Below are positions 1,738-12,023 of a stretch of DNA of 15,464 nt, piece by piece. Every line of letters starts with the position of its first letter. The stretch's first letter is position 1. The stretch is from a virus. Taxonomy: Duplodnaviria; Heunggongvirae; Uroviricota; Caudoviricetes. The translations under genes and the position numbers were made by a program. The notes under the pieces were generated by a model. It did no database searches and was not told where the DNA came from. It was given only the letters and a program-made list of their open reading frames with translations. The DNA is taken from the IMG/VR virus record IMGVR_UViG_2869953405_000005, one strand, 5' to 3'.

Positions 1738-1801
1738 TGAGGTAGCCTGAGTTTAACGGACACTCCTTCCTGAAATAGAATGGCATCAGAAGGAGCTAAT
1801 A

Positions 1802-2104
1802 ATGAGCAGAAAAACCCAACGTTACTCTAAAGAGTTCAAAGCCGAAGCTGTCAGAACGGTTCCTGAAAATCAACTTTCGATCAGTGAAGGCGCTTCCCGA
1901 TTATCTCTTCCTGAAGGCACTTTAGGACAATGGGTTACCGCCGCCAGAAAAGGGCTCGGTACTCCTGGTTCCCGCACGGTGGCTGAACTGGAATCTGAAA
2001 TTCTGCAACTGCGTAAGGCGTTAAATGAAGCTCGCCTTGAGCGAGATATATTAAAAAAAGCAACAGCGTATTTTGCACAGGAGTCGCTGAAAAATACGCG
2101 TTAA
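1802..2104 (+). CDS. IS600 OrfA (IS3-family transposase, N-terminal HTH part)
   Basis: 100-aa ORF, identical to ORF 10048..10350; RBS GGAG before the ATG. Confidence 0.9.
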   Translation: MSRKTQRYSKEFKAEAVRTVPENQLSISEGASRLSLPEGTLGQWVTAARKGLGTPGSRTVAELESEILQLRKALNEARLERDILKKATAYFAQESLKNTR

Positions 2105-2139
2105 TCGAACAATGGCGACAACAATTTCCCATTGAAGCG

Positions 2140-2958
2140 ATGTGTCAGGTATTTGGTGTATCCAGGAGCGGTTATTACAACTGGGTACAGCATGAACCCT
2201 CAGACAGAAAACAAAGTGATGAGCGGCTAAAACTGGAGATTAAGGTGGCACATATCCGCACTCGCGAAACATATGGAACCCGGCGGCACCAGACGGAGCT
2301 GGCAGAGAATGGCATCATCGTTGGTCGTGACCGACTGGCACGTCTTCGTAAGGAGCTAAGGCTACGCTGTAAGCAGAAACGCAAGTTCAGAGCGACTACG
2401 AACTCGAACCACAATCTGCCAGTTGCGCCAAATCTGCTGAACCAGACGTTCGCTCCTACAGCACCAAATCAGGTCTGGGTGGCGGACCTGACGTATGTTG
2501 CCACACAGGAGGGATGGTTGTACCTCGCTGGCATCAAAGATGTTTATACGTGCGAAATTGTCGGCTACGCCATGGGAGAGCGCATGACAAAAGAGCTGAC
2601 AGGTAAAGCCCTGTTTATGGCGCTCAGGAGCCAGCGCCCACCTGCCGGGCTAATCCACCACTCTGATCGAGGTTCACAGTACTGCGCATACGATTACCGG
2701 GTCATACAGGAGCAGTCTGGTCTGAAAACATCAATGTCGCGTAAAGGTAACTGTTACGACAACGCTCCGATGGAAAGCTTCTGGGGAACGCTGAAAAATG
2801 AGAGCCTGAGCCACTATCGTTTTAATAACCGGGATGAAGCCATCTCAGTAATACGGGAATACATTGAGATTTTCTACAATCGTCAGCGTCGTCACTCTCG
2901 TCTGGGGAATATCTCCCCGGCAGCCTTCAGGGAAAAATATCATCAGATGGCTGCTTAA
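2140..2958 (+). CDS. IS600 OrfB (DDE transposase catalytic part, normally expressed as OrfAB by -1 frameshift)
   Basis: 272-aa ORF in the -1 frame relative to orfA; integrase-core-like sequence (HSDRGSQY...). Confidence 0.9.
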   Translation: MCQVFGVSRSGYYNWVQHEPSDRKQSDERLKLEIKVAHIRTRETYGTRRHQTELAENGIIVGRDRLARLRKELRLRCKQKRKFRATTNSNHNLPVAPNLLNQTFAPTAPNQVWVADLTYVATQEGWLYLAGIKDVYTCEIVGYAMGERMTKELTGKALFMALRSQRPPAGLIHHSDRGSQYCAYDYRVIQEQSGLKTSMSRKGNCYDNAPMESFWGTLKNESLSHYRFNNRDEAISVIREYIEIFYNRQRRHSRLGNISPAAFREKYHQMAA

Positions 2959-3001
2959 AAAAAGAACAAATGGTAGTGTCCGCTATTGCCAGTACACCTC
3001 A

Positions 3002-3143
3002 GGGTATAAGGGGTTATGGCCACCGGACTACCAAACGGCTGCCAGCCCTCTTTCAGTTTATGTGTCAGCTTTTCCGCAAGATCTGACGGCGGCGCCGCCC
3101 TGACAACATCATAGTGTTTAAATGCCATGGTTCTTTCCACCAT
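3002..3143 (-). pseudogene. N-terminal fragment of a small gene interrupted by the IS600 end
   Basis: Minus-strand ORF MVERTMAFKHYDVVRAAPPSDLAEKLTHKLKEGWQPFGSPVAITPY runs into the IS600 terminus at 3001; GGTGGAAAG precedes the second ATG (3126-3128). Confidence 0.3.
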
Positions 3144-3321
3144 CTGAAAAATAATTCTTTAAAATACCTGACATGTAATACAGAAAAAACACAAAACCAT
3201 ACCTTAAATAAAAACCTGATTATCAAGCAGATATGCATGGATAAACTACAAGACGAGATATAAACCACCCTGCATTTAAATAAACAATAAACAACATCAG
3301 AAAAATAATTCTGCTCTATGG

Positions 3322-3348
3322 TTTACATTCAAAAATATCATTTATACT
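3322..3348 (+). promoter_or_regulatory. candidate sigma70 promoter for ORF 3389..3724 (TTTACA, 15-nt spacer, TATACT)
   Basis: Hexamers read directly from the sequence at 3322-3327 and 3343-3348; spacing is suboptimal at 15 nt. Confidence 0.3.
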
Positions 3349-3388
3349 TTTCAGAACATCACCAGCAAGGCATAAACAAGGAAACTAA

Positions 3389-8777: not shown

Positions 8778-9025
8778 GTTGATGTCCTTTCTGGTGTGAG
8801 AACCTTAAGGAAACAACATGGTGTAGCAGCCAGCCAGTTATTTCTCTGGCGTAAGCAATACCAGGAAGGAAGTCTTACTGCTGTCGCCGCCGGAGAACAG
8901 GTTGTTCCTGCCTCTGAACTTGCTGCCGCCATGAAGCAGATTAAAGAACTCCAGCGCCTGCTCGGCAAGAAAACGATGGAAAATGAACTCCTCAAAGAAG
9001 CCGTTGAATATGGACGGGCAAAAAA

Positions 9026-9931
9026 GTGGATAGCGCACGCGCCCTTATTGCCCGGGGATGGGGAGTAAGCTTAGTCAGCCGTTGTCTCCGGGTGTCGCGT
9101 GCGCAGTTGCACGTCATTCTCAGACGAACCGATGACTGGATGGATGGCCGCCGCAGTCGTCACACTGATGATACGGATGTGCTTCTCCGTATACACCATG
9201 TTATCGGAGAGCTGCCCACGTATGGTTATCGTCGGGTATGGGCGCTGCTTCGCAGACAGGCAGAACTTGATGGTATGCCTGCGATCAATGCCAAACGTGT
9301 TTACCGGATCATGCGCCAGAATGCGCTGTTGCTTGAGCGAAAACCTGCTGTACCGCCATCGAAACGGGCACATACAGGCAGAGTGGCCGTGAAAGAAAGC
9401 AATCAGCGATGGTGCTCTGACGGGTTCGAGTTCTGCTGTGATAACGGAGAGAGACTGCGTGTCACGTTCGCGCTGGACTGCTGTGATCGTGAGGCACTGC
9501 ACTGGGCGGTGACTACCGGCGGCTTCAACAGTGAAACAGTACAGGACGTCATGCTGGGAGCGGTGGAACGCCGCTTCGGCAACGATCTTCCGTCGTCTCC
9601 AGTGGAGTGGCTGACGGATAATGGTTCATGCTACCGGGCTAATGAAACACGCCAGTTCGCCCGGATGTTGGGACTTGAACCGAAGAACACGGCGGTGCGG
9701 AGTCCGGAGAGTAACGGAATAGCAGAGAGCTTCGTGAAAACGATAAAGCGTGACTACATCAGTATCATGCCCAAACCAGACGGGTTAACGGCAGCAAAGA
9801 ACCTTGCAGAGGCGTTCGAGCATTATAACGAATGGCATCCGCATAGTGCGCTGGGTTATCGCTCGCCACGGGAATATCTGCGGCAGCGGGCTTGTAATGG
9901 GTTAAGTGATAACAGATGTCTGGAAATATAG
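9026..9931 (+). CDS. insD: IS2 InsD (orfB, DDE transposase part)
   Basis: 301-aa ORF matching recalled IS2 InsD; overlaps the insC end at the A6G frameshift site. Confidence 0.9.
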
Positions 9932-10047
9932 GGGCAAATCCAGTCCGTTATAAAAACGCCGGTAAATCGTTCCCAGAGAACCGTGAGGTAGCCTGAGTTT
10001 AACGGACACTCCTTCCTGAAATAGAATGGCATCAGAAGGAGCTAATA

Positions 10048-10350
10048 ATGAGCAGAAAAACCCAACGTTACTCTAAAGAGTTCAAAGCCGAAGCTGTCAG
10101 AACGGTTCCTGAAAATCAACTTTCGATCAGTGAAGGCGCTTCCCGATTATCTCTTCCTGAAGGCACTTTAGGACAATGGGTTACCGCCGCCAGAAAAGGG
10201 CTCGGTACTCCTGGTTCCCGCACGGTGGCTGAACTGGAATCTGAAATTCTGCAACTGCGTAAGGCGTTAAATGAAGCTCGCCTTGAGCGAGATATATTAA
10301 AAAAAGCAACAGCGTATTTTGCACAGGAGTCGCTGAAAAATACGCGTTAA
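10048..10350 (+). CDS. IS600 OrfA (intact)
   Basis: Identical protein to ORF 1802..2104. Confidence 0.9.
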   Translation: MSRKTQRYSKEFKAEAVRTVPENQLSISEGASRLSLPEGTLGQWVTAARKGLGTPGSRTVAELESEILQLRKALNEARLERDILKKATAYFAQESLKNTR

Positions 10351-10512
10351 TCGAACAATGGCGACAACAATTTCCCATTGAAGCGATGTGTCAGGTATTT
10401 GGTGTATCCAGGAGCGGTTATTACAACTGGGTACAGCATGAACCCTCAGACAGAAAACAAAGTGATGAGCGGCTAAAACTGGAGATTAAGGTGGCACGGT
10501 AATGACTCCAAC

Positions 10513-11016
10513 TTATTGATAGTGTTTTATGTTCAGATAATGCCCGATGACTTTGTCATGCAGCTCCACCGATTTTGAGAACGACAGCGACTTCCGTCCC
10601 AGCCGTGCCAGGTGCTGCCTCAGATTCAGGTTATGCCGCTCAATTCGCTGCGTATATCGCTTGCTGATTACGTGCAGCTTTCCCTTCAGGCGGGATTCAT
10701 ACAGCGGCCAGCCATCCGTCATCCATATCACCACGTCAAAGGGTGACAGCAGGCTCATAAGACGCCCCAGCGTCGCCATAGTGCGTTCACCGAATACGTG
10801 CGCAACAACCGTCTTCCGGAGACTGTCATATGCGTAAAACAGCCAGCGCTGGCGCGATTTAGCCCCGACATAGCCCCACTGTTCGTCCATTTCCGCGCAG
10901 ACGATGACGTCACTGCCCGGCTGTATGCGCGAGGTTACCGACTGCGGCCTGAGTTTTTTAAGTGACGTAAAATCGTGTTGAGGCCAACGCCCATAATGCG
11001 TGCAGTTGCCCGGCAT
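10513..11016 (-). CDS. insB: IS1 InsB
   Basis: Identical protein to ORF 523..1026. Confidence 0.9.
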
Positions 11017-11210
11017 CCAACGCCATTCATGGCCATATCAATGATTTTCTGGTGCGTACCGGGTTGAGAAGCGGTGTAAGTGAACTGCAGTTGCCATGTT
11101 TTACGGCAGTGAGAGCAGAGATAGCGCTGATGTCCGGCAGTGCTTTTGCCGTTACGCACCACCCCGTCAGTAGCTGAACAGGAGGGACAGCTGATAGAAA
11201 CAGAAGCCAC
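10935..11210 (-). CDS. insA: IS1 InsA
   Basis: Identical protein to ORF 945..1220. Confidence 0.9.
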
Positions 11211-12023
11211 TGGAGCACCTCAAAAACACCAGCATACACTAAATCAGTAAGTTGGCAGCATCACCAGGTGGCACATATCCGCACTCGCGAAACATATGGA
11301 ACCCGGCGGCTCCAGACGGAGCTGGCAGAGAATGGCATCATTGTTGGTCGTGACCGACTGGCACGTCTTCGTAGGAGCTAAGGCTACGCTGTAAGCAGAA
11401 ACGCAAGTTCAGAGCGACTACGAACTCGAACCACAATCTGCCAGTTGCGCCAAATCTGCTGAACCAGACGTTCGCTCCTACAGCACCAAATCAGGTCTGG
11501 GTGGCGGACCTGACGTATGTTGCCACACAGGAGGGATGGTTGTACCTCGCTGGCATCAAAGATGTTTATACGTGCGAAATTGTCGGCTACGCCATGGGAG
11601 AGCGCATGACAAAAGAGCTGACAGGTAAAGCCCTGTTTATGGCGCTCAGGAGCCAGCGCCCACCTGCCGGGCTAATCCACCACTCTGATCGAGGTTCACA
11701 GTACTGCGCATACGATTACCGGGTCATACAGGAGCAGTCTGGTCTGAAAACATCAATGTCGCGTAAAGGTAACTGTTACGACAACGCTCCGATGGAAAGC
11801 TTCTGGGGAACGCTGAAAAATGAGAGCCTGAGCCACTATCGTTTTAATAACCGGGATGAAGCCATCTCAGTAATACGGGAATACATTGAGATTTTCTACA
11901 ATCGTCAGCGTCGTCACTCTCGTCTGGGGAATATCTCCCCGGCAGCCTTCAGGGAAAAATATCATCAGATGGCTGCTTAAAAAAAGAACAAATGGTAGTG
12001 TCCGCTATTGCCAGTACACCTCA

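Follow-up and report, generated by a model that had tools for sequence, protein, structure and literature searches.

The window examined here is the whole 15,464-nucleotide (nt) stretch of the IMG/VR record IMGVR_UViG_2869953405_000005, which carries two copies of the insertion sequence (IS) IS600, copy A (positions 1738 to 3001, plus strand) and copy B (9984 to 12023, plus strand). Nucleotide identity assigns these 15.5 kb to the Shigella sonnei chromosome, with positions 3713 to 15464 being 100% identical to LR213449.1 and 99.8 to 99.96% identical to other S. sonnei chromosomes. NCBI also lists a flank protein under S. sonnei. The content of the window is a decayed, ipaH-carrying lambdoid prophage of the yecD/yecE site, fused with a piece of a second prophage that is normally found at ompW. 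Fragment I (1 to 464, minus strand) consists of two nin-region genes of the ompW-site lambdoid prophage, encoding a DUF4014 protein (1 to 219) and a 70-amino-acid (aa) product (252 to 464). It is followed by a DUF977 gene lacking its first ∼12 codons (1348 to 1737, minus strand), which forms the left flank of copy A. The right flank of copy A is a DUF1737 gene stub (3002 to 3128/3143, minus strand) that retains the N-terminal 42 codons and then reads through into IS600. This stub opens fragment II (3002 to 9983, minus strand), which extends to the last 160 nt of a dnaB-type replicative helicase gene (6470 to 6593 plus 9943 to 9983, minus strand) at the left flank of copy B. Beyond copy B lies fragment III (12024 to 13533, plus strand), in which a tail-fibre gene without its first 478 nt (∼159 codons) precedes the tail-fibre assembly gene (tfa, DUF4376). 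Intact versions of the four genes place the breaks, marked here by a slash, at ...CTTTAATTTT/TTCCCGCTC in the DUF977 gene, ...GCCTGCATCA/GGGTATAAGG in the DUF1737 gene, ...GAGAACCG/TTACGTTG in the helicase gene, and ...GAGGACAGAA/AGGCCACTGCGG in the tail-fibre gene. A preliminary description, made from the letters of the window, had noted truncated genes abutting both copies (1348 to 1737, 3002 to 3143, and the tail fibre at 12024); the intact homologues confirm these three and add the helicase gene as a fourth truncated flank.

Copy A is an intact element of 1264 bp with orfA at 1802 to 2104 and orfB at 2140 to 2958 (100 and 272 aa; Pfam HTH_Tnp_1, HTH_21, and rve on identical products). It shares 99.6% identity with a copy annotated as "IS3-like element IS600 family transposase" in NZ_CP065613.1, and the RefSeq note on the IS600 copy in that record reads "programmed frameshift." Its junctions are ...TTTAATTTT/TGAGG at the left end and CCTCA/GGGTAT at the right, so that its flanking triplets are TTT and GGG. 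Copy B carries an IS1 at 10498 to 11265 and a 1-nt deletion near 11374, and measures 1263 bp once IS1 and the IS1 duplication are removed. Both lesions break orfB, and copy B is inactivated. Its junctions, ...GAGAACCG/TGAGG and CCTCA/AGGCCA, leave CCG and AGG as flanking triplets.

These triplets are as the preliminary description gave them, and its statement that neither copy is flanked by a target-site duplication was upheld by a systematic scan. When the termini were shifted by −4 to +4 bp at either end and duplications of k = 2 to 5 were sought, none of at least 3 bp was found for copy A or copy B at any shift. The cross pairs TTT/AGG and CCG/GGG did not match either, again as first described. 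As a control, 22 distinct pairs of IS600 flanks were assembled from the S. sonnei and Escherichia coli loci that had been fetched. The termini TGAGG...CCTCA were identical in all 22, and 11 displayed a perfect 3-bp duplication at precisely these ends (CAT, GTG, AAC, GTG, AAG, TGC, TAC, GCT, GAA, GGA, and TTG), compared with ∼0.3 expected by chance. The 11 perfect duplications indicate that the assumed termini are right and, hence, that a missing duplication is informative. Since the 3-bp duplication marks the primary insertion rather than the element itself, the junctions of copies A and B must be secondary. Copies A and B and nine other sampled flank pairs, about half of the sampled copies, lack the duplication; duplication-less IS600 copies are thus common in S. 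sonnei. The intact target sequences happen to continue into the IS600 ends, by 3 nt at the right end of copy A (TCA, 2999 to 3001) and by 1 nt at positions 1738 and 9984 (T). This overlap, which causes BLAST alignments of the flanks to overrun the junctions, is probably due to chance (1/64 and 1/4, respectively).

The same data bear on the simplest account of the two copies, namely, that both are plain insertions whose duplications were hidden by wrongly set termini or erased by point mutation. One or two mutations can erase a 3-bp duplication, and the flanks of copy B still agree at one of three bases. Nonetheless, the same termini are accompanied by perfect duplications in 11 copies, and in neither A nor B does any shift recreate one. 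The preliminary description had itself allowed for termini misplaced by 1 to 3 bp; shifts of up to 4 bp recovered nothing, and neither displaced termini nor another duplication length can account for the two copies. Moreover, each copy is flanked by parts of two different genes, and references in which these genes are intact have them separated by kilobases to hundreds of kilobases. Simple insertion is therefore an exceedingly improbable origin for either copy. Instead, both are most likely junctions generated by recombination between different IS600 copies, and they lack duplications because each joins DNA that was originally nonadjacent. The preliminary description had favored adjacent deletion, or recombination involving further IS600 copies, over simple insertion, a view supported by the nonadjacent origin of the flanks, by the partner junctions of copy A, and by further recombinants in other strains.

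The two flanks of copy A derive from different prophages. On the left, the DUF977 gene belongs to the ompW-site prophage, in which it, the 70-aa gene, and the DUF4014 gene make up the replication and nin region. Fragment I is 99.8% identical to the prophage of E. coli ATCC 25922 (locus L002, 5503 to 6007), and its DUF4014 and 70-aa genes adjoin ompW in other S. sonnei genomes (loci L012, L013, L018, and L046). On the right, the DUF1737 gene is part of the yecD/yecE prophage, immediately downstream of the Q/tRNA/iraM genes. Joined flanks were contiguous in 0 of 5426 complete E. coli genomes at a criterion of at least 80% coverage. S. sonnei loci were gathered by look-up with the chimeric 57/62-aa DUF1737-IS600 product, Q, RusA, and an OrfB fragment. 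In 43 of the loci fetched, which represent 26 different S. sonnei chromosome records, the arrangement is TAG-IS600-GGG with the same DUF1737 flank. Beyond the TAG end of the element, these 26 records continue with a C-terminally truncated 203-aa open reading frame (ORF), dam, a resolvase gene, and yecE; a homology search with the 203-aa flank protein returned only a 196-aa partial representative. The other half of copy A is found in TTT-IS600-TCC, with TTT on the DUF977 side and TCC in a 76-aa ORF, which adjoins ompW in four records. Three genomes yielded both of these copies, which occupy opposite strands at distances of 672, 677, and 736 kb from each other. Copy A is thus a hybrid, with its left end taken from the TTT-IS600-TCC copy at ompW and its right end from the TAG-IS600-GGG copy on the yecE side. 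Both parental copies are themselves without a duplication. The comparison of IS600 flanks that the preliminary description had suggested therefore disclosed the partner junctions of copy A, and not those of copy B.

Because the half-junctions of copy A reside elsewhere on separate, inverted IS600 copies, copy A is a recombination product that reports a strain-specific inversion. A RecA-type homologous exchange between the IS600 copies of the ompW and yecD/yecE prophages would invert the 0.67- to 0.74-Mb interval between them. The gene order expected from such an exchange is that of the window: ompW...DUF4014-70aa-IS1-DUF977′-IS600-DUF1737′...Q...helicase′-IS600B-tail fibre′-tfa-ipaH-dinI-yecD. 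In LR213449.1, copy A occupies 1,822,891 to 1,824,154, less than 1 kb from the position of the TTT-IS600-TCC copy in CBDDMI01 (1,821,900), which is similar in size and typical in arrangement; the ipaH locus of LR213449.1 is reversed. With 4.84 Mb, the chromosome of LR213449.1 has a normal length like the other genomes, so that a 0.67-Mb deletion is excluded and the event was an inversion. On the K-12 map, ompW, yecE, and dif are located at ∼1.31, ∼1.95, and ∼1.59 Mb, respectively. By these positions, the ∼0.67-Mb inversion should span the replication terminus and be roughly symmetric about it. Terminus-symmetric inversions are usually tolerated. Compared with other S. sonnei strains, the source strain thus probably has a ∼0.67-Mb inversion bounded by IS600, a feature useful for genome-structure comparison and for judging assemblies.

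An erroneous assembly, with a wrong join made across two identical 1.26-kb IS600 repeats, could in principle also generate the hybrid flanks of copy A. All 26 other S. sonnei chromosome records have TAG-IS600-GGG, and TTT-IS600-GGG occurs in none of them. In addition, the window has two private homopolymer differences, at 12883 and 13039, which resemble consensus errors. However, homopolymer errors are characteristic of assemblies built from long reads, which span 1.26 kb without difficulty. Copy A implies a clean inversion between inverted repeats that leaves the genome size unchanged, long-read-confirmed IS-flanked inversions are documented in S. sonnei (PMC12795559), and equally large IS600-mediated differences are present in other strains. 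We therefore regard a misassembly as very unlikely. As to the two homopolymers themselves, a G is missing at 12883 and a T at 13039, and among the 20 loci compared, only the window and LR213449.1 have these differences. The resulting frameshifts in the tail-fibre and tfa genes yield calls of 367 and 121 aa versus 306/317 and 205/207 aa elsewhere, and both differences may be long-read consensus errors.

The origin of copy B can be read from E. coli FDAARGOS_944 (NZ_CP065613.1, 453 to 501 kb), in which the same ipaH prophage is preserved almost whole at the corresponding yecD-yecE site. The gene order there is aspS-yecD-dinI-ipaH-tfa-tail fibre-Lom-J-tail-head-terminase-lysis-DUF1737-iraM-tRNA-Q-RusA-85aa-helicase-...-cI-...-xis-int-yecE, and fragment II is 99.3 to 99.7% identical to it (locus L003, 9805 to 12731). 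The break points of the window fall at 457,547 in the tail-fibre gene (...GACAGAA/AGGCCAC), at 480,957 in the DUF1737 gene (...GCATCA/GGGTAT), and at 483,879 in the helicase gene (...GAACCG/TTACG). The sequence from the helicase gene to RusA is contiguous in FDAARGOS_944 across the site at which an IS2 interrupts it in the window (99.7% identity), which confirms a simple insertion for this IS2 and identifies the 3′ end of the helicase gene as the left flank of copy B. The two points fused by copy B, the final 160 nt of the helicase gene and codon 160 of the tail-fibre gene, are thus separated by 26 kb in the intact phage and oppositely oriented relative to each other there, the tail-fibre match falling on the strand opposite to the helicase and DUF1737 matches. 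The window lacks 23 kb of lysis, head, and tail genes, and its fragment II is flipped with respect to fragment III. The FDAARGOS_944 prophage has three independent IS600 insertions of its own, each with a perfect duplication (CAT, GTG, and AAG), and is a useful reference for Shigella ipaH islands before decay.

The simplest history for copy B comprises two steps. First, an IS600 in the tail-fibre gene would have recombined with an inverted copy in the helicase gene to give an inversion, and a deletion between an IS600 in the DUF1737 gene and a direct copy further out, in the 203-aa gene, would follow; the order of the two events is one that we infer. The second step would remove the reciprocal junction of the first, which would explain why the partner halves are not seen. 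The CCG-IS600-AGG arrangement at copy B was found in 35 of 35 sampled S. sonnei loci, a count that includes repeat fetches of the same genomes, and its presence in every sampled S. sonnei implies that it predates the diversification of the sampled strains. Copy B is hence old, whereas copy A is recent and specific to this strain.

Rearrangements at the same copies are also evident in other strains. CP151334.1 has a single IS600 with the flanks TAG and AGG that carries the IS1 of copy B. An exchange between copies A and B, within the first 514 bp, has removed fragment II there. Three further records, CP044151.1, CP049165.1, and CP179970.1, have additional variants at these copies; the types seen among them are a deletion that extends as far as an IS600 in dam, rearrangement on the copy B side, and a different gene, Mom, beyond the resolvase gene. 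These IS600 copies are active recombination substrates.

Several observations weigh against recombination between IS600 copies as the source of both junctions. The reciprocal junction predicted for copy A, TAG-IS600-TCC, was not retrieved by look-ups that reached genomes of the typical arrangement or short contigs and not that part of LR213449.1. Copy A in the form seen in the window comes from one assembly only. The IS600 copies differ at 0 to 2 sites, none of which is informative between the two parents, so that the crossover point in copy A cannot be mapped. Among the sampled loci, partner junctions were found neither for copy B nor for TAG-IS600-GGG; the missing halves would be the tail-fibre 5′ part joined to the element (...GACAGAAAGG/IS600), the element joined to the helicase 5′ part (IS600/CCGTTACGTTG), and ...GCATCAGGG/IS600. 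For these two, and likewise for TTT-IS600-TCC, which also lacks partners, homologous recombination and transposase-mediated events are indistinguishable. Finally, the TTT-IS600-TCC copy looks like the outcome of something other than a simple exchange between copies. Position 551 of the element (window 2288, A versus T) was considered as a crossover marker and discarded as not diagnostic, being common to other IS600 copies in the genome. The window has A at this position, whereas T is present in 13 of the IS600 A copies compared from typical loci and in most other copies. The A variant, which encodes the same OrfB protein, recurs in many other S. sonnei IS600 copies and in the ompW copy of one strain, a distribution that suggests gene conversion among IS600 copies.

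The features of the TTT-IS600-TCC copy at ompW point to the main competing explanation, in which the IS600 transposase itself made the junctions by intramolecular transposition, through (IS)2-dimer or one-ended events that result in adjacent deletions or inversions. The intact 87-aa gene has the sequence ...GCTG TCC ATCACC, and S. sonnei retains both halves of the original duplication, one TCC directly beyond the right end of the ompW-prophage IS600 and a second 1,029 bp away (10531 to 10533 and 7461 to 7463 in locus L018). The second TCC marks the point at which the 5′ part of the 87-aa gene is fused to an integrase remnant; there is no IS at this point, which in the source genome would lie ∼70 bp to the left of the window start. 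The segment between the two TCC triplets is inverted, and ∼8 kb, from int to the 5′ end of the DUF977 gene, are missing. A split TCC accompanied by an inverted segment and an ∼8-kb deletion, without a second IS, does not easily arise from a plain exchange between two copies, and the lack of partner junctions for copy B and TAG-IS600-GGG among the sampled loci is likewise in favor of the transposase. On the other side, both parental junction pairs of copy A are found elsewhere on complete IS600 copies, and copy A is the exact product of a reciprocal exchange between them. The deletion between copies A and B in CP151334.1 is likewise an exchange product, and copy B took part in it although it is dead (IS1 plus frameshift). 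IS3-family elements transpose by a copy-out-paste-in pathway, of which adjacent deletions are not a normal outcome, and this counts against the transposase as well. Transposase-driven events may have made the old junctions but are unnecessary for copy A and for the A-B deletion, and we consider them an unlikely source of the junctions as a whole. Homologous recombination between IS600 copies is the more probable source of both.

For the TTT-IS600-TCC copy itself, the rearrangement may be either a transposase-mediated event or the result of several steps. That it records a transposase-made, one-ended inversion-plus-deletion by an IS3-family element is a tentative proposal that we deem improbable. 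If true, it would document in nature a route of rearrangement that is not usually ascribed to copy-out-paste-in elements. Transposase-driven adjacent deletion or inversion-deletion is classically known from IS1, IS10/Tn10, and IS30/IS21 dimers. The ompW-prophage copy resembles the products of adjacent deletion and inversion-deletion in keeping the old flank at one end and having a new, formerly nearby flank at the other, and differs from them in that the far breakpoint has neither a second IS nor an inverted duplication.

The two direct IS600 copies bracket the ∼7-kb fragment II in the manner of a composite transposon. Unlike in such an element, however, the outer flanks do not match (TTT versus AGG; TAG versus AGG in typical strains), copy B is defective, and the bracketed DNA is native prophage in inverted orientation. 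An IS600-fragment II-IS600 transposon was thus rejected.

IS expansion in Shigella has involved IS1, IS2, IS4, IS600, and IS911, with recombination between homologous IS copies leading to deletions and inversions (PMC7373316). Of 114 reconstructed inversions, 103 mapped to Shigella branches (PMC8072062), lineage-specific IS-flanked inversions have been confirmed by long reads in S. sonnei (PMC12795559), and IS-mediated structural variants distinguish serial isolates (PMC8092226). The locus described here conforms to this IS-mediated homologous recombination in its hybrid, duplication-less copies at synteny breakpoints, in the association of inverted copies with inversions and of direct copies with deletions, in the strain-variable nature of the events, and in the degradation of a prophage, without any difference in kind. 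As IS600 elements, the copies correspond to the IS3-family copy-out-paste-in type (1264 bp, TG...CA ends, orfA/orfB with rve, and a 3-bp duplication in 11 sampled copies); copies A and B differ in lacking the duplication, one or both flanks having been exchanged after insertion. The junctions at A and B are, in sum, a well-supported instance of the known reshuffling of Shigella genomes by IS elements, with no new mechanism or element, and they provide a concrete view of how one S. sonnei prophage was dismantled. The IS600 inversion between the ompW and yecE prophages was not found described in the main texts of PMC7373316, PMC8072062, PMC12795559, and PMC8092226, whose supplements were not searched. 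More generally, the absence of a duplication reliably signals an IS-mediated breakpoint.

The window contains four further insertions. An IS1 at 508 to 1275 (minus strand) is a simple insertion with a 9-bp duplication, ACAGTGCCG at 499 to 507 and ACAGTGCTG at 1276 to 1284, that has one mismatch. The intact E. coli sequence equals the right-hand copy, and the flanks of this IS1 are contiguous in the ATCC 25922 prophage. The IS1 inside copy B (10498 to 11265) is bordered by the 9-bp duplication AGGTGGCAC, and the IS2 at 6594 to 9942 (plus strand) by a perfect 5-bp duplication, GTCCG (6589 to 6593 and 9943 to 9947). The preliminary description had set the IS1 and IS2 insertions, as retaining duplications, against the IS600 copies. 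This is correct for IS2 and for the IS1 in copy B, and for the IS1 at 508 to 1275 it holds except for the one mismatch. The IS2 itself is interrupted by an IS21-family element (∼6754 to 8813, minus strand; istA, 7605 to 8777; istB, 6808 to 7608) that has no target duplication, replaces 43 bp of IS2 (nt 160 to 202), and shows AACATG microhomology at one edge. Contrary to the contrast drawn earlier, therefore, the non-IS600 insertions in the window are not all simple. IS1 is absent from copy B in several strains (e.g., CP104423.1 and HE616528.1), and in strain 53G an IS1 resides inside copy A instead; IS1 activity at these IS600 copies is thus recent and strain specific.

Fragment II further comprises iraM (3389 to 3724, plus strand) and, all on the minus strand, tRNA-Arg and tRNA-Met genes (4636 to 4888), the Q antiterminator gene (4991 to 5845), the RusA gene (5842 to 6216), and an 85-aa gene (6216 to 6473). 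At the right end of the window, ipaH (13713 to 15464, minus strand), which is the prophage's cargo gene on its yecD side, encodes a 583-aa protein with leucine-rich repeats and a NEL E3 ligase domain (Pfam LRR_TTSS and NEL). Its neighbors are dinI, yecD, and aspS, and it is annotated as ipaHd.

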